Source of the DNA: a virus
Taxonomy: Duplodnaviria; Heunggongvirae; Uroviricota; Caudoviricetes
Direction: 5' to 3' (one strand)
DNA: 17,844 bases
Virus record (IMG/VR): IMGVR_UViG_2547132253_000001
Part shown: piece after piece, positions 3,476-17,844 of the stretch
How the letters are laid out: every line of letters begins with the position of its first letter
Numbering within the stretch: the first letter of the stretch is position 1
Made by a program: the position numbers and the translations under genes
The notes under the pieces: generated by a model
Told to the model about the DNA's origin: nothing
Database searches by the model: none
Seen by the model: only the letters and a program-made list of their open reading frames with translations

Positions 3476-3679
3476 ATGGCTAATTACAATTCATTAATTC
3501 GTCTCTCTGAAGTTCAAAGGCGAACTGGTTATAGCAAAGCATGGATTTATCGTCTTATTAGTCAGGGGAGGTTCCCTAAACAGGTAAAAATTGGAAGTCG
3601 GGCAATTGCTTTTGTTGAGTCTGAAATAGATGAATGGATTGAGAAGTGTATATTAGAATCTAGAGACGAGGTGGCCTGA
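3476..3679 (+). CDS. alpA: AlpA-family phage transcriptional regulator (HTH), 67 aa
   Basis: ATG 3476 to TGA 3677-3679; sequence LIRLSEVQRRTGYSKAWIYRLISQGRFPKQVKIGSRAIAFVESEIDEWI fits the AlpA/MerR-like HTH pattern; stop overlaps the next ATG (TGATG). Confidence 0.85.
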   Translation: MANYNSLIRLSEVQRRTGYSKAWIYRLISQGRFPKQVKIGSRAIAFVESEIDEWIEKCILESRDEVA

Positions 3680-4122: not shown

Positions 4123-4956
4123 ATGAACATCGAAAAAAGCAGATTAATTTCTGAGGCCGCCCCTCATCTGAACGCCTCTCTGGGCACAATTAACGGTAAT
4201 GAATTTGCCGCAATTGTCCCGGTTATTCCTGGTCATATCGGTGGGCGTGAAACCAATATTGTTAGCGCAAAAGCGTTACACAAAGCGTTGGGCGTGGGAA
4301 AAGACTTCTCTACATGGATCACTGATCGCATCTCTGAATATGACTTCACCATTGGGCACGATTACTCAGTCCATAAAACAATTTCCCCAAATTTGGGGAA
4401 AAGCCCGAATGGCGCGGCTTACAGCAAGATTAAGCAGTCTGGCAGACCCGGCAAAGACTATCTGTTAAGTGTCGGAATGGCGAAAGAACTGGCAATGATC
4501 GAACGCAATGATCAGGGTCGCGCTATCCGCCGTTATTTCATCCAGTGCGAGGAAGAATTACAGCGTAGCGTGCCTGAAATCGCCGCCCGCTATCGTCGCC
4601 AGCTAAAAGCCCGTATCAGTGCCGCAAACAACTTTAAGCCAATGTGCGATGCGCTGAATATGGCCCGTGCCGAGATGGGTAAAACGACGCAGCAACACCA
4701 CTACACAAACGAGAGCAATATGATTTCTCGTATCGTTCTTGGTGGGCTAACTGCTAAACAGTGGGCGCGGATAAATGGCTATTCTGGCGAACCTCGCGAC
4801 CATATGAACGCAGAACAACTTGAGCACCTCTCATATCTCGAAAGCACCAATATCACGTTAATTGATATGGGCATGGAATATGAGCAGCGCAAAGGAGAAC
4901 TCACCCGCCTGTCGCAACGCTGGCTCGCCAAGCGTCTGGAGGTGGTCAATGTCTAA
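4123..4956 (+). CDS. Phage antirepressor-like protein (AntA/AntB-type N-terminal domain), 277 aa
   Basis: ATG 4123 with GGAGA SD; N-terminal region NIVSAKALHKALGVGKDFSTWITDRI and following LLSVGMAKELAMIERNDQGRAIRRYFIQCEEEL resemble the AntA/KilAC antirepressor pattern as I recall it. Confidence 0.65.
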   Translation: MNIEKSRLISEAAPHLNASLGTINGNEFAAIVPVIPGHIGGRETNIVSAKALHKALGVGKDFSTWITDRISEYDFTIGHDYSVHKTISPNLGKSPNGAAYSKIKQSGRPGKDYLLSVGMAKELAMIERNDQGRAIRRYFIQCEEELQRSVPEIAARYRRQLKARISAANNFKPMCDALNMARAEMGKTTQQHHYTNESNMISRIVLGGLTAKQWARINGYSGEPRDHMNAEQLEHLSYLESTNITLIDMGMEYEQRKGELTRLSQRWLAKRLEVVNV

Positions 4957-5131
4957 GCCAACAGGAACACCACAACCACAAAAACGCTACAAAGATGCCC
5001 ACGGAGCACTCGTTACTGTCGAAAGCGTGTCTCACAACCGAGTGACGTTTTATCGCGACGGGTATCAATCGCCATGCGTACAACCGCTGGCGCGTTTCAT
5101 GAAGGAGTTCGCGGAGGTTAACAAATGCTAA
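4949..5131 (+). CDS. Small hypothetical protein, 60 aa (DUF4222-like by recollection)
   Basis: ATG at 4949 overlaps the stop of the upstream gene (ATGTCTAA); this is the in-frame C-terminal part of track ORF 4862-5131; sequence MSKPTGTPQPQKRYKDAHGALVTVESVSHNRVTFYRDGY. Confidence 0.5.
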   Translation: MSKPTGTPQPQKRYKDAHGALVTVESVSHNRVTFYRDGYQSPCVQPLARFMKEFAEVNKC

Positions 5132-5562
5132 CCGTCCAGAAGAAGACATTTTCACTGGCTGGTATGTCGCCAAAATCCAGCAATATGACGGCAAAGTCAG
5201 GCATTAATACAGCAGATACAAGCAAAGTTTATCATTTGCTGTTGGTCGGAACGGATGCCTTAACCATATCAGAAATCTCGGGCGATGATATTAGCATTGA
5301 GAAGGTCAGCGGCTGCGCCAGAAAATTTCTGGTCGTAGATGATGTCTTCCGCTCGTGTAGTGACTCCACAAAAACATTCGTCCACGCGCGTGACGTTAAC
5401 GAAATGAGCGCGATGTACTGTGCATCTGGTGCTTCCAATAGCGAGTTTTCGGAGTCCATAAAAAAGAGCTTGCCGTTATGCGGCAACACGGTTTATGGTT
5501 ATAAGGCACCTCATAAAACGGGTGCCGGGATTGGCGTCCTGGTAAATCGAATGGCGACATAT

Positions 5563-5584
5563 GACGCGCCGAGCGTCTTTTTTT
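5563..5584 (+). terminator. Rho-independent terminator
   Basis: GACGC-GCCGA-GCGTC hairpin (5563-5577) followed by TTTTTTT (5578-5584). Confidence 0.6.
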
Positions 5585-5611
5585 ATGTCGTAGGTCTGAC
5601 TCACCCATTTT

Positions 5612-5636
5612 TTGGGCGTTGGTGTATAATCCAGCG
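5612..5636 (+). promoter_or_regulatory. Putative sigma70 promoter (perfect -10 TATAAT at 5625-5630; no good -35)
   Basis: TATAAT hexamer 5625-5630 immediately after the terminator and about 150 nt upstream of the Icd-like start; the -35 element is weak or mis-spaced (TTGGGC at 5612-5617). Confidence 0.3.
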
Positions 5637-5639
5637 CCT

Positions 5640-5786
5640 TTGTCAATCAATGGTGGCTCAGGCAGGGGCTTCTTCGGAAGCGCCGGTATCCATTCGAGCC
5701 GGTTACGCCAACCCTGTCTGGGCTACCACCAGCGAAATTGGCGTTTCCGGTGGTAGCGTTACATGCTATCGAATGGAGGCTGCCAC
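5640..5786 (+). ncRNA. Candidate structured leader / small regulatory RNA (P4 CI- or C4-like immunity RNA hypothesis)
   Basis: GCUUC-UUCG-GAAGC tetraloop hairpin (5668-5681); 9-bp stem GCTACCACC (5722-5730) pairing with GGTGGTAGC (5749-5757); an upstream GGTGG (5652-5656) could pair alternatively with CCACC; no coding frame supported here. Confidence 0.3.
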
Positions 5787-5981
5787 ATGCTGGCTACTAC
5801 CCCTACCCAAAAACCGCAATTTATCTGGATTATCGCCGCAGTTCGCCGCGATTGCCCGACAATTACCGCCAAAATTCATCATATTGCTGCCGAGTCTGAA
5901 CGCGATGCTCGCCGTTCTCTGGTGCGCGATCACGTCTGCTTTTTTGCTGGTCGTATCCGCATGGAGGTGGCTCATGATTAA
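5787..5981 (+). CDS. Icd-like host cell division inhibitor family protein, 64 aa
   Basis: ATG 5787 with GGAGG at 5775-5779; MLATTPTQKPQFIWIIAAVRRDCPTITAKIHH... resembles the Icd-like small proteins of P4-like prophages (recollection). Lies in a different frame inside the artifactual 355-aa track ORF. Confidence 0.65.
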   Translation: MLATTPTQKPQFIWIIAAVRRDCPTITAKIHHIAAESERDARRSLVRDHVCFFAGRIRMEVAHD

Positions 5982-6192
5982 AACCTACGATGTGCATATG
6001 GATCCCCTCGAACGCACAAGCCAGATCATCACACTGACAGAAGTGATTAACGACATTCTGGTGAGCAACTCTCCCTCACGAGACGAAAGACTGAAGGCGT
6101 TACTCGCGATATTGGATCTCGCCGTTCGTGACGTTCATTTCCTGCTGGAAGGTGGCGAAATGCCAGGAAAAACGGGGGCAACCAATGAATAA
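5974..6192 (+). CDS. Hypothetical small protein, 72 aa
   Basis: ATG 5974 preceded by GGAGGTGG (5963-5970); overlaps the Icd-like stop (ATGATTAA); C-terminal in-frame part of track ORF 5125-6192. Confidence 0.55.
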   Translation: MIKTYDVHMDPLERTSQIITLTEVINDILVSNSPSRDERLKALLAILDLAVRDVHFLLEGGEMPGKTGATNE

Positions 6193-6379
6193 CTCAATTA
6201 ATACCCCTCGCCTTACGTCCGCACTTCAATTAATCGAGCAAGCAGCGGCTGTCCTGGTTGCTGTCAGTCTTTCGGCTGAAGAAATGGACGCTGCTGATGT
6301 CGTGGATGCGATTAAAGCGTGCTCATCTTTGGTTAACGATGCCCGTGCCGAGCTGGTAATTCTTGGGGGTGAAAAATGA
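6185..6379 (+). CDS. Hypothetical small protein, 64 aa
   Basis: ATG 6185 overlaps the upstream stop (ATGAATAA); in-frame part of track ORF 6128-6379. Confidence 0.5.
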   Translation: MNNSINTPRLTSALQLIEQAAAVLVAVSLSAEEMDAADVVDAIKACSSLVNDARAELVILGGEK

Positions 6380-6639
6380 ATATCAACTTAATTTATCGTC
6401 ATCCGTGTGAGCTGGAAATTGAATCATTGCTGGGGCGTGAAGAGCCATATCCAGACACATTCACTCCCGCAGATTGCGCGACTGAACGGCTTACCAGAGC
6501 GCGCACAGGTCTGGTTCATGTGATGAATGAGATTGTTCCCTCGGTGGGAGGGGAACAGGCGACAGTAATCAATAGCTGGCTACAAAAAGTTACCTCCCTG
6601 ATAGATATCGGTTTAATCGATGTGGAGAGTGCGAAATGA
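6376..6639 (+). CDS. Hypothetical small protein, 87 aa
   Basis: ATG 6376 overlaps the upstream stop (ATGA); SD GGGGTGA upstream. Confidence 0.55.
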   Translation: MNINLIYRHPCELEIESLLGREEPYPDTFTPADCATERLTRARTGLVHVMNEIVPSVGGEQATVINSWLQKVTSLIDIGLIDVESAK

Positions 6640-6857
6640 CCAACATCCAGCTCATTGAAGCGCAATGTCGCATCGAACAGGTTCAGACTGTTTTAGGGTT
6701 CTGGCTTGAAGGGGCCAGCCCCAGCAACAGAGACAAGTTAATGATTGGCGCGGTTATGTCACTGCTCAATGGCGTACCAGAAGCTATTCAGGAAGCGGAC
6801 GAATTGTTGGGCAAATATGAGTTACAGAATCATTCAGGCGAGGCGAAACATGAATAA
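6636..6857 (+). CDS. Hypothetical small protein, 73 aa
   Basis: ATG 6636 overlaps the upstream stop (ATGA); part of the coupled operon leading to the primase. Confidence 0.55.
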   Translation: MTNIQLIEAQCRIEQVQTVLGFWLEGASPSNRDKLMIGAVMSLLNGVPEAIQEADELLGKYELQNHSGEAKHE

Positions 6858-7452
6858 TTTCTTAACCTTCCATGCAGAAGCAACGCCTGACGGCGTAAAC
6901 ATCATGCACCGCAGCAACGATGGCATGACAGAACGCGTTGAGACCGTCTCATATATTGATGCCGTAAATCGTCTGGATGCCGGGGATTATGACGATAAAC
7001 CAGATGAAGGCATGTTTATACATCTCGCTATTGCCAGTGGCGGCAACCAGGGATATTTCGATTACACATCACAGCATCACGTGATTATGTGGCGCTGGCT
7101 GATAGCAACAGCATTCATCAATGAAATGAGAAAGGAAAACGGCACCGTCAGCATTATTGATGACAGTGGCAATCATTCCGTGGTTTCTGTTTATTCCAAT
7201 GGCATCGTCGCCATGCCGCTGTATCCAGTAGCAGAGCGCCTCGCTATGGCAAACAACATTGAGGGCGCAATGATCGAGAAATATGGTGTTGATGTCGGAA
7301 CAAAGAATGCCATCATTTTTTACAGCAACATGTTCGATGTCGAACAGGGAACACTCACTTCGTTTGGGCGAGAAGTGCTTGCCGATCTTCACAACAGCTT
7401 TATTGCCGAACTAAACGAAAACGGCATCCCAGAAGCACCAGTGACGCACTAA
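6850..7452 (+). CDS. Hypothetical protein, 200 aa
   Basis: ATG 6850 overlaps the upstream stop (ATGAATAA); the track ORF 6745-7452 is extended upstream, but the internal ATG with coupling is the more plausible start; immediately precedes the primase. Confidence 0.6.
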   Translation: MNNFLTFHAEATPDGVNIMHRSNDGMTERVETVSYIDAVNRLDAGDYDDKPDEGMFIHLAIASGGNQGYFDYTSQHHVIMWRWLIATAFINEMRKENGTVSIIDDSGNHSVVSVYSNGIVAMPLYPVAERLAMANNIEGAMIEKYGVDVGTKNAIIFYSNMFDVEQGTLTSFGREVLADLHNSFIAELNENGIPEAPVTH

Positions 7453-7464
7453 ACGGGGGCCAGA

Positions 7465-10221
7465 ATGCGAAACATTGATCTTATCCGTCAGGTTATCAGT
7501 GCGTCTGAAAACAACTGGCCTCATGTGCTGGGCTGTCTGAACATAAATGTCCCTGACTCTCCTCGCCGTCATGCTCCCTGCCCTGCATGTGGGGGCAAAG
7601 ATCGATTCCGGTTCGACGACAACGGGCGCGGTAGCTTCATCTGTAATCAGTGCGGCGCTGGTGATGGGCTGGATTTAATTAAACGCGTAAATAACTGCGA
7701 CACAACAGAGGCGGCGCTTCTTGCCGCTGATGTTCTGGGTATTGATTACCGGACAACGGAAACACCAGAAGCCACCAGCCAGAAACGGGAACAACTGGAA
7801 ACCGAGCGCCAGCGACGCGAACAGGAGCGCCTGAAAAGGGCAGAGAAGGACGAACAACAAAGACGGGATACGTTTTCCCGTCAGTTTGATGACATGCGCA
7901 GAAAGGCTGTAAACGGCAAATCTGATTATCTGGTTGCGAAAGGGGTAGGTGATTTTACATTCCCAGTGTTGCCCGATGGATCTCTGTTGCTGGCGCTGGT
8001 GGATAAATCCGGCGCAGTCACAGCAGCACAGACTATTACCTCACATGGTGAAAAAAGACTCCTGACAGGTTCAGCAAAGCGAGGGGCATATCACGCCATA
8101 AACGCACCAGAAACAACACAGAGCATCTTAATCGCAGAAGGGCTGGCAACGGCATTATCTGCCCATTTAATTCGTCCAGAATCGCTGACAGTGGCGGCGA
8201 TTGATGCCGGGAACCTGTTATATGTCGCCCAGGTACTGCGGGATAAATTTCCTTCAGCACAAATCATCATTGCTGCGGATAACGACCACAGCGAAGGAAG
8301 ACAAAACACGGGGAGAATAGCAGCAGAAAAAGCAGCTTTATCTGTTTCTGGATGGGTGGCATTACCCCCGACAGATCACAAAGCAGACTGGAATGATTAC
8401 CACCAAAAACACGGCATTAAATGCGCCACAGAAGCGTTCAATAAGTCAATGTACCAACCACAGGGTAATGGCGTGAAACAGCAGCCACAGACCATTGAGG
8501 GAAGCGATTTTAAGGTTATGGATACCGACCCACTGAAACCAAGAATAGAAAGCCGCGAGGATGGTATTTATTGGGTATCTCCGAGAGCTGACAGCCAGAG
8601 TGGAGAAATCATCAATAACGAAAGCTGGTTATGTTCTCCGTTAAGCGTTATCGGTACTGGCAGAGACGATAAAGACCAGTATCTCATTCTTCGCTGGCTG
8701 TCGTTTGGTTCTGAAACGCCGACAACCGCTGCCATTCCACTGGCTGATATTGGTGAACGTGAAGGATGGCGCACACTTAAAGCTGGTGGGGTAAATGTCA
8801 CGACCAAAAGCAGCCTCAGAGCAATACTGGCAGACTGGCTACAACGCAGTGGCTCTCGTGAATTGTGGCGTGTTGCTCATGCCACTGGCTGGCAATGCGG
8901 AGCGTACATCATGCCTGATGGGGAAATCATCGGAACACCTGAAAATCCTGTGCTGTTCAGCGGGAGAAGCTCAGCCGCAGCCGGATATACCGTCTCAGGG
9001 AGCGCGAAAAGCTGGCGTGATAACGTGGCGCGTCTGGCCTTTGGTAACTATTCAATGATGACCGGGATCGGCGCAGCACTGGCAGCGCCATTGATTGGGC
9101 TGGTGGGCGCTGACGGGTTCGGCATTCATTTCTATGAGCAGTCGAGCGCAGGTAAGACCACCACGGCAAACGTGGCGAGCAGCTTATACGGCAACCCTGA
9201 TTTACTGCGGCTGACGTGGTACGGAACCGCGCTGGGGCTGGCAAATGAAGCCGCCGCCCACAATGACGGACTAATGCCGCTTGATGAAGTTGGTCAGGGC
9301 GCTGATCCTGTCAGTGTTTCACAGTCTGCCTATGCGTTATTTAACGGTGTAGGGAAACTGCAAGGCGCTAAAGATGGTGGAAACCGGGATCTAAAACGCT
9401 GGCGTACAGTGGCAATCAGCACTGGAGAAATGGATTTAGAAACATTTATCGCTACTTCCGGGCGAAAAACCAAAGCCGGGCAACTGGTGCGACTGCTGAA
9501 TATTCCGTTGAGTAAAGCAGTACGCTTTCACGATTACCAGAACGGAAAACAGCACGCAGACGCACTGAAAGACGCTTACCAGCATCACCACGGCGCAGCC
9601 GGGCGTGAGTGGATTAAATGGCTGGCAGACCACCAGCAACAGGCTATTAAAACTGTTCGTGACTGCGAAAGCAGATGGAGAAGCCTGATTCCATCCGATT
9701 ATGGTGAGCAGGTTCACCGTGTAGCCGCGCGATTTGCCATTCTGGAGGCCGCATTGCTGTTAGGCGAGGTTGTAACAGGCTGGGATGCTCAGACATGCCG
9801 TGATGCGATACAGCACAGCTATAACGCATGGTTGCGCGAGTTCGGCACAGGTAACAAAGAACATCAGCAGATTATTGAACAAACGGAGGCATTTCTTAAT
9901 GCCTATGGGCTTAGCCGTTTTGCACCATTTCCATACAGCCCGGCAGATTTGCCAATCAAAGATTTAGCCGGATACCGTCAGCGTGGAGAACATGACGAAA
10001 GCCCAATGATTTTCTACACATTCCCGGCCACATTTGAAAAGGAGATCGCATGTGGTTTCAACGCAAAACAGTTTGCTGAAGTGTTGAAAAAAGCCGGGAT
10101 GCTAACCCCACCAAACAGCGGTCGTGGATACCAAAGAAAATCACCACGTATTCAGGGACGACAAATAAACGTTTATGTACTCAATTACCAGCCAGGAGAT
10201 TACAACTCATCTGAAGAATGA
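7465..10221 (+). CDS. P4 alpha-like replication protein: zinc-finger/TOPRIM primase fused to a P-loop (D5/DUF927-like) helicase, 918 aa
   Basis: ATG 7465 with GGGGG SD; N-terminal zinc motif CPACGGKDRF...FICNQCG; TOPRIM-like acidic motif IIIAADNDHSEGR; P-loop FYEQSSAGKTTTANV in the C-terminal half; followed directly by iterons. Confidence 0.9.
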   Translation: MRNIDLIRQVISASENNWPHVLGCLNINVPDSPRRHAPCPACGGKDRFRFDDNGRGSFICNQCGAGDGLDLIKRVNNCDTTEAALLAADVLGIDYRTTETPEATSQKREQLETERQRREQERLKRAEKDEQQRRDTFSRQFDDMRRKAVNGKSDYLVAKGVGDFTFPVLPDGSLLLALVDKSGAVTAAQTITSHGEKRLLTGSAKRGAYHAINAPETTQSILIAEGLATALSAHLIRPESLTVAAIDAGNLLYVAQVLRDKFPSAQIIIAADNDHSEGRQNTGRIAAEKAALSVSGWVALPPTDHKADWNDYHQKHGIKCATEAFNKSMYQPQGNGVKQQPQTIEGSDFKVMDTDPLKPRIESREDGIYWVSPRADSQSGEIINNESWLCSPLSVIGTGRDDKDQYLILRWLSFGSETPTTAAIPLADIGEREGWRTLKAGGVNVTTKSSLRAILADWLQRSGSRELWRVAHATGWQCGAYIMPDGEIIGTPENPVLFSGRSSAAAGYTVSGSAKSWRDNVARLAFGNYSMMTGIGAALAAPLIGLVGADGFGIHFYEQSSAGKTTTANVASSLYGNPDLLRLTWYGTALGLANEAAAHNDGLMPLDEVGQGADPVSVSQSAYALFNGVGKLQGAKDGGNRDLKRWRTVAISTGEMDLETFIATSGRKTKAGQLVRLLNIPLSKAVRFHDYQNGKQHADALKDAYQHHHGAAGREWIKWLADHQQQAIKTVRDCESRWRSLIPSDYGEQVHRVAARFAILEAALLLGEVVTGWDAQTCRDAIQHSYNAWLREFGTGNKEHQQIIEQTEAFLNAYGLSRFAPFPYSPADLPIKDLAGYRQRGEHDESPMIFYTFPATFEKEIACGFNAKQFAEVLKKAGMLTPPNSGRGYQRKSPRIQGRQINVYVLNYQPGDYNSSEE

Positions 10222-10805: not shown

Positions 10806-10979
10806 ATGGCTATTTCAGTAAAGCCAGTATTGATAAGTGAGAAGCAAATGGAAGCGATAAAGAAAATTCAGGAGGAGCAGCGTAAAAAATCAGAGGTAGG
10901 AGTTGCGCCAACGATCCACGAAATTGCTCGGGGATTAATGGATAAGGCGCTGGCTTACACTTTAACTGGACGTGGGTAA
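10806..10979 (+). CDS. Small protein, 57 aa, possible ribbon-helix-helix DNA-binding protein; first gene of the cargo operon
   Basis: ATG 10806 preceded by strong SD AAGGGGG (10795-10801) and a TATAAT at 10767-10772; below the 60-aa cutoff of the ORF track; sequence MAISVKPVLISEKQMEAIKKIQEEQRKKSEVGVAPTIHEIARGLMDKALAYTLTGRG. Confidence 0.45.
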   Translation: MAISVKPVLISEKQMEAIKKIQEEQRKKSEVGVAPTIHEIARGLMDKALAYTLTGRG

Positions 10980-10983
10980 ATCA

Positions 10984-12450
10984 ATGGCTACGTGGCAACA
11001 GGGTATTAATTCTGGTGGTTTTCTGGCTGGCATCGGTACGCAAAATGAGAATGCGCCAAAGGCAAGCGACATTAACGCAACGCTTGGTCTGATCCGCGAA
11101 AACAATGAACTGGCTCGCTCAGGTGCAAATAACGTTGGTCTGACCGCGTTACGTGGTCTGGCTGGAGTTGCTGATATTTATAAGCAGCAGCAACAGCAGG
11201 AGCGTAAAGCGGCATTCCAGAAAGGTTATGCAGATGCTTATGCGTCCGGCGACAGGGAGCAGATGCGTAATCTTATTACAGCATTCCCAGAAGAGTTTGA
11301 GGAAGTCCGTAAAGGGATGAGTTATGTCGATGATGCTCAAAGGGATGATTATGGCAATCTGGCGCTCAAAGCACAGGTAGCCTCATCGCTTGGTCCGGGC
11401 GCATTTGGCAGGTTCATGATGGATAATGAGCAGGAGATGCGTCGTTTAGGTATCCCTCCAGAAACTATTGCTGAAATGCAGGTTAATGACCCGCAGGGCT
11501 TCCAGCATTTCGCAGGTAATCTGGCGCTGTTTTCTCTCGGTCATGAGAAGTATTTCGATATCAAAGATCAAATGGAAGGTCGGGATATTGAGCGCGGCGA
11601 GTTGGCAGAGACAATCCGCAGCAATCAGGCTGGCGAAGCACTTCAGGCGAGAGGGCAGGATATTAGCCGAGCAAATGCGTTAACGTCAGCATATGCACCA
11701 ACAGCAGCAATGCAGAATTACAATCAGTACGCTCAAATGTTAAAGGCGGATCCAGAGGGGGCGGCGGCATTTGCGGCAGCGGCTGGAATTAATACAAACG
11801 CCAAAAAATTAATGAGTGTTAGGGAAAACGATGATGGCACTGTCACAAAATACTACACAGACGGAAGTGAAGAGCAGGGAAAACTAAACCAGCCAATATC
11901 TGGAGATGGGTTTCGTCCAATAGCTTTGCCAACAGCTCAAAAGATCATGGAAAAGTCGCCAGAAGGGGCTAAAAAAGCTGCTGGATTTGCATACAGAGTT
12001 AGGGATGCTCTTGATTCAATGGATACACTGAAAGGCCAGATTAGCCCACAGCGAGTGGCGATCATTAATAATGCTTTGGGTAATGGGACGCTGGCTAACT
12101 TAACGCTCAGCCCAACAGAGCAGCAATACGTTGTTAATGCTAATGACGCAATAATGGCAATACTCCGTCAGGAAACAGGGGCAGCTATCGTACCTGCTGA
12201 AATGTCAAAATATTATCAAATGTATTTCCCTCAGCCTGGTGATTCCACAAAAACCATTGATACCAAGCGCCGGAAGATGGAAAACCAGTTCAATTCGCTG
12301 AAAGCTGCTTCTGGTCGAGCTTATGATGCTTTGCAGGTTATTTCAGCAGTTGACAGAGGAACTTCTTCTTCGTCGCAGACATTGCCGCAATCTGAGCAGG
12401 TATCACAGCCAGCAGCCAGCAGTAACTTTTCTTCACTATGGGGTGATTAA
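10984..12450 (+). CDS. Uncharacterized Ala/Gln/Gly-rich protein, 488 aa (cargo gene 1)
   Basis: Long ORF; ATG at 10984 (MATWQQ) preferred over the track GTG at 10972; low-complexity composition (QQQQQ run, AAAFAAAAG), few aromatics, no catalytic or NTP-binding motif I can see; stop overlaps the next start. Confidence 0.7.
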   Translation: MATWQQGINSGGFLAGIGTQNENAPKASDINATLGLIRENNELARSGANNVGLTALRGLAGVADIYKQQQQQERKAAFQKGYADAYASGDREQMRNLITAFPEEFEEVRKGMSYVDDAQRDDYGNLALKAQVASSLGPGAFGRFMMDNEQEMRRLGIPPETIAEMQVNDPQGFQHFAGNLALFSLGHEKYFDIKDQMEGRDIERGELAETIRSNQAGEALQARGQDISRANALTSAYAPTAAMQNYNQYAQMLKADPEGAAAFAAAAGINTNAKKLMSVRENDDGTVTKYYTDGSEEQGKLNQPISGDGFRPIALPTAQKIMEKSPEGAKKAAGFAYRVRDALDSMDTLKGQISPQRVAIINNALGNGTLANLTLSPTEQQYVVNANDAIMAILRQETGAAIVPAEMSKYYQMYFPQPGDSTKTIDTKRRKMENQFNSLKAASGRAYDALQVISAVDRGTSSSSQTLPQSEQVSQPAASSNFSSLWGD

Positions 12451-13427
12451 TGGCTAAAGCATGGAAAGATGTTATCGCCTCTCCACAGTATCAGGCGTTA
12501 GCACCAGAACAAAAAGCGCAGGCTCAGGAGCAATACTTCAACGAAGTCGTTGCCCCGCAAGCCGGAGAAAGTGTAGAGCAGGCTAAGCAGGCTTTTTATG
12601 CTGCCTATCCACTACCATCAACGAATGAAATAGACCGAGCCCAATCAGCAACTCAAAATATTCAACATACATCATCTGATAATTCTCTTGCGTCAGGGTA
12701 TGCAAAGTTAGCGACTCAGCAAAGAGAGGGGCTTGAACGTTCAGCAGAACAGGGAGCCAGTCTTGGGGCTGCGATGCGCGATGCTATAACAGGCGAAAGC
12801 CGAATGACTCCAGAGATGGAGAGACTGCAAAATGTCGACCTTGCCCCAGAGTTAACCTCACTCAGCATGGATGCTCTAAAAGCTCGATGGTCTCAACTTT
12901 TCGGCTCTGACGCATCTCAGGAAAAGATTCTTCAGAGCATGGGAGCGAAATTAAGGCAGGATGAGAAGGGTAACACTATCGTTTCCCTACCATCCGGTGA
13001 TTATGCTCTGAACAAGCCGGGTTTATCACCGCAAGACGTGGCATCGTTTCTGGCTAATGCGCTGGCGTTTACACCAGCGGGCAGGGCCGGAACGGTGCTG
13101 GGGGCCATAGGGAAATCAGCAGCTACAGATTTAGCACTACAGGGAGCCACCAGCCTCGCTGGTGGAGAAGATATTGATCCGTTACAAACGGTAATCTCTG
13201 CTGGCATTGGCGGCATTGGTAAGGGTCTGGAGAATACAGTGAGTGCCGTTTCGAGGGCCGTTCGCGGTGATATGGCACCGGAAGCGAAAGCCGCTGTTGA
13301 TTTTGCATCGGAAAGAAACCTACCGTTAATGACCAGTGACGTACTGAAAGATAAAAACACTGTGCAGAGTCTGGCCCAGAAAACAGGCGAAAAAATTCCT
13401 TTTTTGGAACGGGTACGAACAGGCTGA
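12450..13427 (+). CDS. Uncharacterized Ala/Gly/Ser-rich protein, 325 aa (cargo gene 2); possibly the N-terminal part of a frameshifted fusion with gene 3
   Basis: ATG 12450 overlapping the gene 1 stop (TAATG), SD-like GGGG upstream; glycine-rich stretches (VLGAIGKSAATDLALQGATSLAGG, ISAGIGGIGKG); ends 22 nt after a T_TTT_TTG heptamer. Confidence 0.65.
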   Translation: MAKAWKDVIASPQYQALAPEQKAQAQEQYFNEVVAPQAGESVEQAKQAFYAAYPLPSTNEIDRAQSATQNIQHTSSDNSLASGYAKLATQQREGLERSAEQGASLGAAMRDAITGESRMTPEMERLQNVDLAPELTSLSMDALKARWSQLFGSDASQEKILQSMGAKLRQDEKGNTIVSLPSGDYALNKPGLSPQDVASFLANALAFTPAGRAGTVLGAIGKSAATDLALQGATSLAGGEDIDPLQTVISAGIGGIGKGLENTVSAVSRAVRGDMAPEAKAAVDFASERNLPLMTSDVLKDKNTVQSLAQKTGEKIPFLERVRTG

Positions 13428-13576
13428 ATCAACAACAGGCTCGGGAAAATCTGGTCAGAACATATAACGATGGTCTGGGAGGCATTTCAGATAAACAGCT
13501 TTATGAGTCTGCTACTAAAGGGCAGCAAAAATTCATTGAGGCCGCAGGTAAGCGATATAACCGCATAATTGACGCT

Positions 13577-14554
13577 ATGGGGGATACCCCTGTCGACCTA
13601 TCAAACACGGTAAAAGCTATCGACAATCAGATTGCCGTGTTAAGCCGCCCGGGCAAATCTCAGGATAGAGCCGCGGTAAAAGTCTTGCAGCAATTTAAAG
13701 ACGATATCACCAGCGGACCCAATGACCTGCGTCTGGCGAGAGAAAACAGAACTGACCTTCGAAAGCGGTTCATGAATTCAAACGAGACTGTTGATAAAGA
13801 CACGCTCCAGAAAGCCAGCGATATTGTCTACAAGGCATATACGCTGGATATGAGAAGGGCAGTAGCCCAGAAACTGGGTTCAGAAGAAGCAGCCAATATG
13901 GCAAGGGTTGATCGCTCATGGTCTAAATTCAATGACATGATGGGAAGAACGCGCGTTCAAAAGGCAATAGCCAGCGGCAAGGCCACGCCTGAGGATGTAA
14001 CAAAACTCGTGTTTAGCCAAAGCCCATCAGAACGTTCTCAGCTTTACAGGCTTCTGGATGACAATGGTAGGCAAAACGCACGAGCAGCCATAGTTCAGAA
14101 TGCTGTAGATAAGGCGACTGATCCGTCTGGAAATATCAGTGTTGAGAAGTTTATTAATGCGTTACACCGGAACAGGAAGCAATCAGCAACTTTCTTTAAA
14201 GGCGTGCACGGAAAGGAACTGGACGGCATTATTAAATACCTCAACGATACCAGACAGGCGGCAAAGGTTGACGGTCAGAAATTAAACAGCCAGAAACTTT
14301 ATGGCCTGCTGGTTGGTGGAGGCGCTATAAATGCGGCAGTTCTGGCGGGGATGCTGAAAACGGCTGCGTTTGTTGTTCCTGCTGCTGGTGCTTTAGGCGG
14401 AGCAGCGAAGGCATACGAAAGCCCTGTTATACGAAATGCCTTATTACGTCTGGCAAATACGCCAAAAGGTAGCACAGCATATGACAGAGCGATCAGTACA
14501 GTCACACAATCACTGACCACAGCAGCACAAGCATCGCAAAAGGAAGCTCAATAA
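13577..14554 (+). CDS. Uncharacterized protein, 325 aa as annotated (cargo gene 3), with C-terminal glycine-zipper hydrophobic hairpin; reading frame is open upstream to 13355
   Basis: First ATG at 13577 has no SD; the same frame is open and protein-like from 13355 with no ATG/GTG/TTG in between; hydrophobic Gly/Ala-rich segments LYGLLVGGGAINAAVLAGML and AAFVVPAAGALGGAA near the C-terminus. Confidence 0.6.
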   Translation: MGDTPVDLSNTVKAIDNQIAVLSRPGKSQDRAAVKVLQQFKDDITSGPNDLRLARENRTDLRKRFMNSNETVDKDTLQKASDIVYKAYTLDMRRAVAQKLGSEEAANMARVDRSWSKFNDMMGRTRVQKAIASGKATPEDVTKLVFSQSPSERSQLYRLLDDNGRQNARAAIVQNAVDKATDPSGNISVEKFINALHRNRKQSATFFKGVHGKELDGIIKYLNDTRQAAKVDGQKLNSQKLYGLLVGGGAINAAVLAGMLKTAAFVVPAAGALGGAAKAYESPVIRNALLRLANTPKGSTAYDRAISTVTQSLTTAAQASQKEAQ

Positions 14555-15884: not shown

Positions 15885-16754
15885 ATGGCTGTTCCGGTTA
15901 AGGTTCATAAAGAATATGATGAACTTGTCGATTTATTGCTGTCTCGGGGTATGGATGTGCCAGATCGCGAACATGCTATCAAGAAAATCTCACAAGTAGG
16001 CTACTACCGATTATCAGGCTTTTGGTACCCCTGCCGAATCCCCCATATAACAACAGACAATATTAGAACCAGACTCGATCAGGTTCGTCCAGGTACTAAT
16101 TTTCGCGCAGTATATGACCTCTATTTATTCGATAAAAATCTGCGTTTGCAGATGATGAATGCGTTAGAACGCATTGAGGTTTATGTTCGGTCAGTTATTG
16201 CTCATGAGCTTGGTAAGATATCTCCTTTAGCATATCTTGATGACTCGCTAATAAATCCAAAACACTTTAGACCACGTTCCCATGGTCGCCCAAGCGCCAG
16301 AGAAGAATGGATAAATAAACATAATGCCGAGATTGCTAAAAGTCGCGAAGACTTTATCAAATGGCATGAAAACAAGTACGAAGGTCTTCCTTTCTGGGTG
16401 GTTATTGAAGTGTGGGACTTCGGCTTAATGTCAAAGTATTATGCGATGCTAAAAGACAGCTATCGCAACAGGATACTATCTAGGCTAGGGATAGCGGCAG
16501 GCAATGGAGCTATCTTCCAAAACTGGCTTAGCGCAATGAATGTGCTAAGGAATCGGTGCGCTCACCATTCACGCATCTGGAACAAGGTCAACGAACCAAG
16601 ATTAATGCCTTTGCCAAATGAGCCGTACTTTGAACAATTAAATATGAATGATGATGCGTACGAAAGAATGTACGGAATGATCGCTGTGTTATGGTTTTTA
16701 GTGAAAAAAATTGGACCGGGATCTGACTGGATAAAAAAGTTGCCAACCTTGTAG
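15885..16754 (+). CDS. Abi_2 family (AbiD/AbiF-like) abortive-infection protein with HEPN-type R-x4-H motif, 289 aa
   Basis: N-terminal EYDELVDLLLSRGMDVPDREHAIKKISQVGYYRLSGFWYP matches the conserved Abi_2 N-terminal pattern as I recall it; LRNRCAHHSRIWN (nt about 16549-16572) carries an R-x4-H HEPN-like motif; ATG 15885, stop TAG 16752-16754. Confidence 0.8.
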   Translation: MAVPVKVHKEYDELVDLLLSRGMDVPDREHAIKKISQVGYYRLSGFWYPCRIPHITTDNIRTRLDQVRPGTNFRAVYDLYLFDKNLRLQMMNALERIEVYVRSVIAHELGKISPLAYLDDSLINPKHFRPRSHGRPSAREEWINKHNAEIAKSREDFIKWHENKYEGLPFWVVIEVWDFGLMSKYYAMLKDSYRNRILSRLGIAAGNGAIFQNWLSAMNVLRNRCAHHSRIWNKVNEPRLMPLPNEPYFEQLNMNDDAYERMYGMIAVLWFLVKKIGPGSDWIKKLPTL

Positions 16755-17562: not shown

Positions 17563-17844
17563 ATGATAAGGGACAGGAAAGCTGAAGAGCTGGAGTCAAA
17601 AGGGCTATACCGGAGAGCTGCCGCACGATGGATGGAAGTCATGCTGTTATGCACCGAGGACGATGATCGGGAATGGATAAAGCGCCGCCGTGAAACGTGT
17701 CTGGAGAACGTGAAGCGCCCGCCCGTGAAGGTTGAGGAATTTGGCGACCTGCATAAAGCTGTTACCGAAACGCAACACCGCATGGGGATAGCGCAACCGA
17801 ACGGTAACGCCTTCCGGTTAAATGGCGGCAAGAGGCAAAGGTAG
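17563..17844 (+). CDS. PerC-family-like small transcriptional regulator, 93 aa (family assignment tentative)
   Basis: ATG 17563 to TAG 17842-17844; MIRDRKAEELESKGLYRRAAARWMEV... resembles the PerC/Pch N-terminal motif as I recall it; SD-like GAGAGG upstream. Confidence 0.5.
   Translation: MIRDRKAEELESKGLYRRAAARWMEVMLLCTEDDDREWIKRRRETCLENVKRPPVKVEEFGDLHKAVTETQHRMGIAQPNGNAFRLNGGKRQR

Follow-up and report, generated by a model that had tools for sequence, protein, structure and literature searches.

The leader in front of a small Icd-like gene raises the question of whether it carries a regulatory RNA and, if so, of which kind. Reading the letters alone, the initial annotation had described positions 5563–5786 of the window (the whole 17,844-nt stretch of DNA analysed here) as a terminator, a promoter and about 150 nt of structured non-coding sequence, and had proposed a P4-type immunity RNA controlling an operon from the Icd-like gene to a primase gene. 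Our analysis supported the core of that proposal: the region is a P4 CI/C4-type riboregulator in the Icd-like-to-primase leader and an ordinary member of a known family. It is not non-coding, since a conserved eta-like open reading frame (ORF) crosses all of it.

The window is Escherichia coli chromosome, with proA and a tRNA-Thr(CGU) gene followed by an integrative island whose insertion site is the E. coli tRNA-Thr gene thrW. Positions 5450–6000 were 100% identical to many complete E. coli genomes in a sequence search, and 1167 of 5426 genomes carried sequence related to this segment. The layout of the island in the window is as follows.

1369–1441: tRNA-Thr(CGU)
1610–2824: integrase
3476–3679: AlpA-type regulator
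4123–4956: AntA/B protein
4949–5131: DUF4222 protein
5787–5981, + strand: Icd-like / P4 Kil-like gene, 64 aa, with a Shine–Dalgarno sequence (SD) GGAGG at 5775–5779
between the Icd-like gene and the primase gene: several small ORFs
7465–10221, + strand: primase with Zn-ribbon, Toprim and DUF927 domains (Pfam)
5974–10221, + strand: tightly packed genes up to the primase, presumed to be a regulated operon; ORFs overlap or abut

The genes at 5974–10221 are presumed to be co-transcribed given how closely their ORFs are packed, and the Icd-like gene is the first cistron of the regulated operon. Its product, named 'host cell division inhibitor Icd-like protein' in RefSeq, was 44% identical to the ORF at the P4 kil position (E = 4e-11), and the SD with its spacer, GGAGGCTGCC, was near-invariant in related loci. 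On the 3' side of the primase region, Pfam and PHROG matches to the window ORFs indicated P22-type ejection-protein genes, an Abi_2 gene and perC. Psu, Sid and Delta had zero Pfam or PHROG matches among the ORFs of the window, which may be shorter than the island. Judged by the gene content of the window, the element has integration, immunity and replication modules in common with P4; unlike canonical P4, for which P2 is the helper, it has no Psu, Sid or Delta genes that we could find, and its cargo and downstream genes differ. The element is very probably a P4-like integrative island, that is, a Gram-negative PICI or P4-type satellite, and the region its immunity module.

Scored against curated Rfam gathering thresholds, the window matched two RNA covariance models. 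RF01695, the C4 antisense RNA family that includes P4 CI, aligned over its full length (model positions 1–87 of 87) at 79.5 bits against a threshold of 45 (E = 1.7e-14). RF01394 (isrK) aligned at full length on the + strand at 67.1 bits against a threshold of 50. The parts of the first RNA are listed here.

5646–5733, + strand: C4 / P4 CI-type antisense RNA (Rfam RF01695)
5651–5667 with 5712–5728: outer (closing) helix of C4, 17 bp
5668–5681: C4 hairpin 1, GCUUC-UUCG-GAAGC, with a UUCG loop
5682–5703: C4 hairpin 2
5689–5697: box b', UCCAUUCGA, in the loop of C4 hairpin 2
5705–5711: box a', ACGCCAA, in the C4 junction
5728–5731: tRNA-like 3' ACCA of C4

Homology to P4 was also apparent in the DNA: blastn aligned 5647–5808 with the P4 cI region (71% identity, E = 2e-12) and additionally matched "immunity regions" of SfV-like and Stx phages. 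The 88-nt C4 core had a minimum free energy (MFE) of −47.2 kcal/mol (z = −5.8), and 0 of 200 shuffles were as stable; the longer segment 5636–5800 likewise gave z = −5.8. The MFE structure of C4 was that of the Rfam model, with computed unpaired probabilities of 0.68 and 1.00 for the two boxes. The tetraloop hairpin that the initial annotation had pointed out is present as C4 hairpin 1. The GGTGG at 5652–5656, which had been suggested as an alternative partner for a downstream CCACC, is also present but has a different role: as GGUGG it pairs with CUACC at 5723–5727 and forms the 5' strand of the closing helix, which is the main helix of C4. Two RNase P features, U(−1)/G(+1) and a 3' RCCA, were conserved in related loci, and the mature RNA is predicted to span approximately 5652–5731, or about 79–80 nt. 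P4 CI is 79 nt long. Cleavage by RNase P has been documented for the P4 CI and P1 C4 precursors (PMC5499578).

The second RNA lies 62 nt upstream of C4 and consists of three hairpins, the last of which is an intrinsic terminator.

5506–5583, + strand: isrK / P4 seqA-like RNA (Rfam RF01394)
5531–5537: target box a1, in the loop of isrK hairpin 2
5547–5554: target box b1, in the isrK linker
5563–5584, + strand: intrinsic terminator, GACGC-GCCGA-GCGTC followed by T7, the 3' hairpin of isrK

The terminator had already been noted from the letters, and the terminator scan called it too; the known RNA to which it belongs had been missed. We take it to be the equivalent of P4 t1; the P4 terminators are reportedly t1, t4 and timm. 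A different Rfam model for this position, RF03163 (c4-a1b1), stayed below threshold in the window (17.9 bits vs 46.7 at 5493–5545), and two relatives, L015 and L017, did pass it. The isrK model is the better descriptor for the window. Previous work has equated isrK with P4 seqA and C4 with P4 CI RNA (PMC3632133; PMC4825925).

Conservation was assessed in 19 loci from other enterobacterial species, collected with the Icd-like protein as the only bait, to which P4 was added. C4 was found in 19 of the 19 loci and in P4, with its end about 54 nt upstream of the ATG, and isrK in 18 of the 19 and in P4. Across the whole C4 structure, 92.2% of cells were paired, as against 35–49% in slid controls, with double changes in 21 pairs. 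The closing helix (99.4% of cells paired, 11 pairs with double changes) and hairpin 1 (98.0%, 5 of 5 pairs compensatory) were the parts scored separately. The isrK fold behaved similarly, with 91.6% of cells paired vs 32–41% in slid controls and double changes in 7 pairs. The covariance-model search, the folding analysis and the comparison among relatives that the initial annotation had called for all gave positive results, the last of these extending to a 9-bp helix discussed below.

Both C4 boxes have exact complements of 7–9 nt on the same strand on either side of C4: b' is complementary to 5547–5554 and to 5769–5777, and a' to 5531–5537 and to 5738–5744. The upstream pair is a1/b1 in isrK. 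The downstream pair lies directly in front of the Icd-like gene.

5738–5777, + strand: downstream target, equivalent to P4 seqC and P1 a2/b2
5738–5744: box a2, exact complement of a'
5769–5777: box b2, overlapping the SD GGAGG (5775–5779) of the Icd-like gene

The composite pattern TTGGCGT-N(5-30)-TCGAATGG occurred 3 times in the 17.8-kb window vs 0.00 times expected, always inside one 250-nt stretch. When viral contigs were scanned with this pattern, there was a single match per contig among the matches listed; a further scan with a longer C4-box pattern matched 15 contigs, mostly of about 20 kb. Among 21 elements we counted 15 distinct b' and 8 distinct a' boxes, every one of them matched on both sides by the targets of its own element. 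Cognate b2 pairing averaged 8.1 of 9 positions, vs 5.3 for non-cognate combinations, and in a permutation test of cognate box pairing the observed total was attained 0–2 times in 10000. Boxes and targets co-vary over distances of 140 nt. In position and complementarity, the arrangement is the seqA/seqB/seqC layout of P4 and the a1b1/a'b'/a2b2 layout of P1.

The boxes themselves differ from those of P4, which are UUCUCAC and UCCUGUGAA where the window element has ACGCCAA and UCCAUUCGA, so the island and P4 should be heteroimmune. The module would then set the immunity specificity of the island. The finding of 15 b' boxes in 21 related elements suggests that RNA immunity types diversify fast, which bears on predicting cross-talk between satellites and prophages.

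A long open frame also runs through the same DNA.

5125–6192, + strand: eta-like ORF, 355 aa (ORF list), with an SD GGAGG at 5113–5117

The ATG of this ORF overlaps the stop of the DUF4222 gene, and the frame crosses the promoter, isrK, the spacer, C4, the downstream target and the Icd-like gene, which it reads in the +1 frame, before ending together with the next small gene. Read through an invariant ATGGTGG, the frame was free of stops between isrK and a point 50 nt beyond C4 in 24 of 26 related loci; the other two frames contained 70 and 88 stops in total. The distance from isrK to C4 was 0 mod 3 in 24 of 24 open-frame loci, all spacer-length variants being frame-preserving. Pfam Phage_ASH matched aa 124–232 (E = 3e-30), that is, nt 5494–5820, and coincides with the RNA region. 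Could the region then be purely protein-coding, an Ash/Eta protein of the Bro network in which the RNA structures are incidental? The conserved open frame and the Phage_ASH match would favor this, as would the RefSeq and phage records, which annotate only proteins here. Against it, 11, 5 and 5 base pairs carry double changes that alter the codons of both helix strands, boxes and targets co-vary over 140 nt, two independent covariance models score far over threshold, and the domain match is exactly the RNA region. Moreover, the P1-like JL22 and Klebsiella phage Kpn74 retain both RNAs, although, unlike in the window, the eta-like frame is closed. We consider a purely protein-coding region extremely improbable and reject it on the helix and box covariation.

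The +1 frame of icd had no stop in any of the 8 loci that eta enters in this frame, the window included, and was closed in 12 of 13 loci where eta is in frame with icd. The eta frame is thus kept open in whichever frame it reaches icd, which suggests that selection acts on ribosome transit rather than on the peptide. P4 eta has 197 codons, and the segment 1246–1839 of L002 is consistent with this length. According to PMC10111431, which cites Forti et al. 1999, P4 eta encloses both the RNAs and PLE, is translated only from an upstream late promoter, and by its translation prevents the termination that depends on immunity.

Which promoter drives the module was the next point on which the initial reading needed revision, as it had placed a promoter at a perfect TATAAT between the two RNAs. 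Two elements of the region bear on this.

5470–5499, + strand: predicted PLE-like sigma-70 promoter, TTGCCG at 5470–5475, an 18-nt spacer and TATGGT at 5494–5499
5614–5639, + strand: hairpin in the isrK–C4 spacer, with TATAAT (5625–5630) in its apical loop, 5623–5630

The PLE-like promoter lies inside the eta-like ORF at the position homologous to P4 PLE, its −10 ending 7 nt upstream of the start of the isrK model. Its hexamers, their spacing and the distance to isrK were the same in nearly all of 20 loci, and TTGCCG-18-TATGGT is collinear with TTGCCT-18-TATAGT of P4, of which the −10 is annotated by the depositors. The driving promoter is most likely this one. We placed the transcript start at approximately 5506 because the PLE-like promoter is conserved and the spacer with TATAAT is not, and C4 would arise when transcription continues past the isrK terminator, a route reported for both P4 and Gifsy-1.

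The TATAAT is real as sequence, a perfect consensus −10 kept exactly in 8 of the 12 loci that have the full spacer, and a start about 7 nt past it would give a 14-nt leader, a size that RNase P could remove. On these grounds it could be a true internal promoter, loosely analogous to a dedicated c4 promoter, that transcribes C4 independently of the upstream promoter and of isrK read-through. However, it has no acceptable −35 and no extended −10, and the promoter scan made no call at 5625–5630 for want of a usable −35. It sits in the apical loop of a hairpin whose stem of 8–13 bp shows G:U and compensatory changes (per-sequence folds, 12 loci), an RNA-level signature on the + strand. Further, 7 of 19 loci lack this part of the spacer and P4 has unrelated sequence there, with C4 intact in all, and the PLE-like promoter, unlike TATAAT, is kept in essentially all loci. 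We therefore discarded TATAAT as the main promoter of the module, and regard an independent internal promoter for C4 as quite improbable, though it may act as a minor, second C4 promoter. As a further alternative pairing, the 5' strand of C4 was predicted in most loci to form a duplex with the CACCC region of the spacer (−15 to −21 kcal/mol); the difference between cognate and non-cognate pairs was not significant (776 of 10000 permutations; −16.6 vs −15.8 kcal/mol).

By homology with P4 and P1, from which we infer RNA expression, RNase P processing, termination on pairing and anti-termination by translation, the module would work as follows. Transcription would start at the constitutive PLE-like promoter, and the first 78 nt would form the isrK/seqA-like RNA, ending in the terminator at 5563–5584. 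Transcripts that read through would contain the C4/CI-like RNA, which RNase P would most likely cut at U5651/G5652; after trimming at the 3' ACCA, a stable species of about 80 nt would remain. Its boxes b' (UCCAUUCGA) and a' (ACGCCAA) could pair with a1/b1 in nascent isrK and strengthen termination, an autoregulation as in P4. The same boxes could pair with a2/b2 upstream of the Icd/Kil-like gene and cover part of its SD, causing premature termination or polarity, such that the Icd-like-to-primase operon would stay off while the island is quiescent. Transcripts from further upstream would be translated across the region by way of the eta-like ORF, which would override RNA-mediated termination during induction, as in P4. 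The module thus most likely keeps the replication genes of the island silent.

The comparison with P4 is a close one. DNA homology extends from C4 through kil, and the order and spacing of the putative promoter, isrK with its terminator, C4, the two-sided two-part targets and the Kil/Icd-like cistron are the same. As in P4, the start of the eta-like ORF precedes the putative internal promoter, the ORF is coupled to the gene before it, and a primase-type replication gene lies downstream. The differences are that the isrK–C4 spacer comprises 62 nt with the TATAAT-loop hairpin in the window and 107 unrelated nt in P4, and that the eta-like ORF, unlike P4 eta, reads the kil-like gene in a different frame and stops only where the following gene ends. 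The immI region of P1/P7 has a C4 of the same Rfam family and fold, with RNase P substrate features and target pairs on both sides, the downstream pair lying at the ribosome-binding site of the Icd-like gene. Unlike P1 immI, which is ordered c4-icd-ant with ant as the antirepressor gene, the window has a downstream operon for replication functions, with small ORFs and the primase gene after the Icd-like gene, and its AntA/B gene lies upstream (4123–4956).

Salmonella Gifsy-1, with IsrK and STnc1160, offers a different precedent for the same architecture, an isrK with a leaky terminator followed by a C4-type processed RNA: there, the short IsrK activates instead of repressing (PMC4825925), by activating orf45-anrP translation in trans, which leads to AntQ expression. 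Wiring of this kind could coexist with C4-mediated repression in the window. The two RNAs are mutually complementary, and the full read-through transcript has two nearly isoenergetic predicted conformers: the MFE fold, at −132.0 kcal/mol, pairs a1/b1 of isrK with a'/b' of C4 in cis, and the C4 cloverleaf follows at −130.3 kcal/mol. These alternatives, with the central part of isrK paired to the C4 region, recall structures A and B of Gifsy-1. An activating step would also be plausible given that the SD of the Icd-like gene is buried in 21 of 21 loci. Nevertheless, the locus is homologous to and collinear with that of P4, including kil, the eta-like ORF and the primase operon, and there CI represses and seqA is its target; the orf45-anrP (antirepressor) genes downstream in Gifsy-1 differ from those downstream in the window, which is closer to P4. 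Gifsy-1-like wiring is accordingly an unlikely option here, and repression by the C4 RNA remains our preferred reading. As the cis isrK:C4 duplex is slightly favored in the predicted folds, C4 maturation would depend on co-transcriptional folding.

The 9-bp stem reported in the initial annotation brought in a further alternative structure that involves the leader of the Icd-like gene.

5722–5757, + strand: 9-bp alternative helix, 5722–5730 (GCTACCACC) with 5749–5757 (GGTGGTAGC), an exact 9-nt complement
5730–5792, + strand: long leader hairpin after C4, with an apical stem of 5752–5759 paired with 5763–5770

In this helix, the 3' strand of C4 together with the CC of the CCA tail pairs downstream, leaving box a2 in the loop. 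The stem is exact and conserved as had been noted, but it is not the main stem of the region: it was predicted to be about 12 kcal/mol less favorable than the C4 fold, with an equilibrium probability of about 0 in the full read-through transcript, and we set it aside as the dominant structure on thermodynamic grounds. Its covariation is real all the same. It was 97.7% paired, with 5 double-change pairs, against 32–65% in slid controls, and two positions show Watson–Crick compensation on the downstream strand where the 5' strand of C4 tolerates only G:U. SfV, sal3, an Stx2a phage, P1-like JL22 and Klebsiella phage Kpn74 also retain the helix, each with independent compensatory changes. It lies outside the Rfam C4 model, and we know of no earlier description. 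The leader hairpin buries both the SD and the start codon of the Icd-like gene, 4–5 of the 5 SD nucleotides being buried in per-sequence folds of 21 of 21 loci; its apical stem was 69.9% paired, with 5 double-change pairs.

In the predicted structures, the 9-bp helix would sequester the CCA tail and compete with the SD-burying leader hairpin. It is conceivable, if somewhat doubtful, that it forms one arm of a folding switch in cis that determines which fraction of the RNA becomes repressor and which messenger. In one conformer, the acceptor-like stem of C4 would form, the RNA would be matured and the leader hairpin would bury the SD of the Icd-like gene. In the other, the 5' strand of C4 would be held by the spacer or by cis pairing of isrK with C4, allowing the 9-bp helix to form, box a2 to be presented in a loop and the SD-sequestering hairpin to be broken. 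Such a switch, if true, would set the share of read-through transcripts that become repressor or messenger.

The module is ordinary and has been described in kind, including in PICI-type islands, where C4 and isrK matches have been reported (PMC10111431). The island shares with those PICIs an integrase, a Bro zone, a primase zone and captured phage late genes (Mageeney et al. 2023, PMC10111431), the Bro zone comprising AlpA, AntA and an Ash/eta-like gene with C4 and isrK matches, and we found no substantive difference between those islands and the one in the window. The value of the present analysis lies mainly in annotation, that of the RNA genes and the eta-like ORF, and leaves the understanding of the system unchanged; its by-products are annotation corrections and a conserved alternative helix. 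RefSeq labels the region as a truncated "ash family protein" pseudogene and annotates neither of the two RNA genes nor the eta-like ORF. In PHROGs, the Icd/Kil-like protein is labeled "transcriptional repressor", which is probably a legacy of the old reading of P4 cI as a protein.

Eta, the P4 ORF that contains the immunity RNAs, has a counterpart in the window for which RefSeq carries no annotation:

5125-6192, eta-like ORF of 355 aa, with a good SD sequence and coupled to the DUF4222 gene

Among relatives, the alternative frame through the Icd-like gene was open in all eight in which eta enters there, versus only 1 of 13 otherwise. Because the eta frame is thus open regardless of the frame in which the Icd-like gene is entered, these comparisons suggest that ribosome transit is under selection in the eta-like ORF. 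In Escherichia phage JL22 (P1-like) and Klebsiella phage Kpn74, both RNAs (isrK and C4) were retained along with the 9-bp alternative helix and the box-target pairs, but 2-3 stops closed the eta-type frame; therefore, the translated-through arrangement appears to be specific to P4-like and SfV/Stx-type loci. Compared to JL22, the window has both RNAs, the box-target pairs, and the helix in common, whereas only the window has an open eta-type frame.

A C4 segment with a' and b' boxes exactly as in the window was present in 15 viral contigs from IMG/VR (L148-L162), which, judged by these boxes, are candidate members of the window's immunity group. These contigs were mostly 19-24 kb, and the few of 43-74 kb might be helper-size prophages.

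The RNA region, from isrK through the spacer and C4 to the target, corresponds to the exact extent of a Pfam Phage_ASH (PF10554) domain (5494-5820). RefSeq annotates neither RNA in the window and places a truncated 'ash family protein' pseudogene at 5551-5760. PHROGs labels the Icd/Kil-like protein a 'transcriptional repressor', a name that probably goes back to the time when P4 cI was read as a protein.

We also observed a hairpin in the isrK-C4 spacer (5614-5639), with UAUAAU contained in its apical loop. Its stems were G:U-rich and compensatory across 12 loci, and the hairpin was missing from seven relatives and from P4. Upstream, the PLE-like promoter has a -35 that overlaps an inverted repeat, TTGCCGTTATGCGGCAA (5470-5486), which on the minus strand scored as a hairpin of terminator type with a T run after it. 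The repeat may serve as an operator or, for transcription from upstream, as a bidirectional terminator.

The island attachment site is thrW, and the far end of the island lies outside the window, which includes the following features:

1369-1441, tRNA-Thr(CGU) (thrW), directly 3' of proA
1610-2824, tyrosine integrase, after thrW
10972-14554, 15885-16754, and 17563-17844, cargo beyond the primase: P22-type ejection/DNA-transfer genes, Abi_2, and PerC-family

The P22-type genes were identified by an Inj_translocase match (E 9e-85) and the PHROG 'DNA transfer protein'; further cargo downstream of the primase includes genes for a PerC-family activator and for abortive infection (Abi_2). In its content, the cargo 3' of the primase is similar to the 'late zone' that Gram-negative PICIs have captured.
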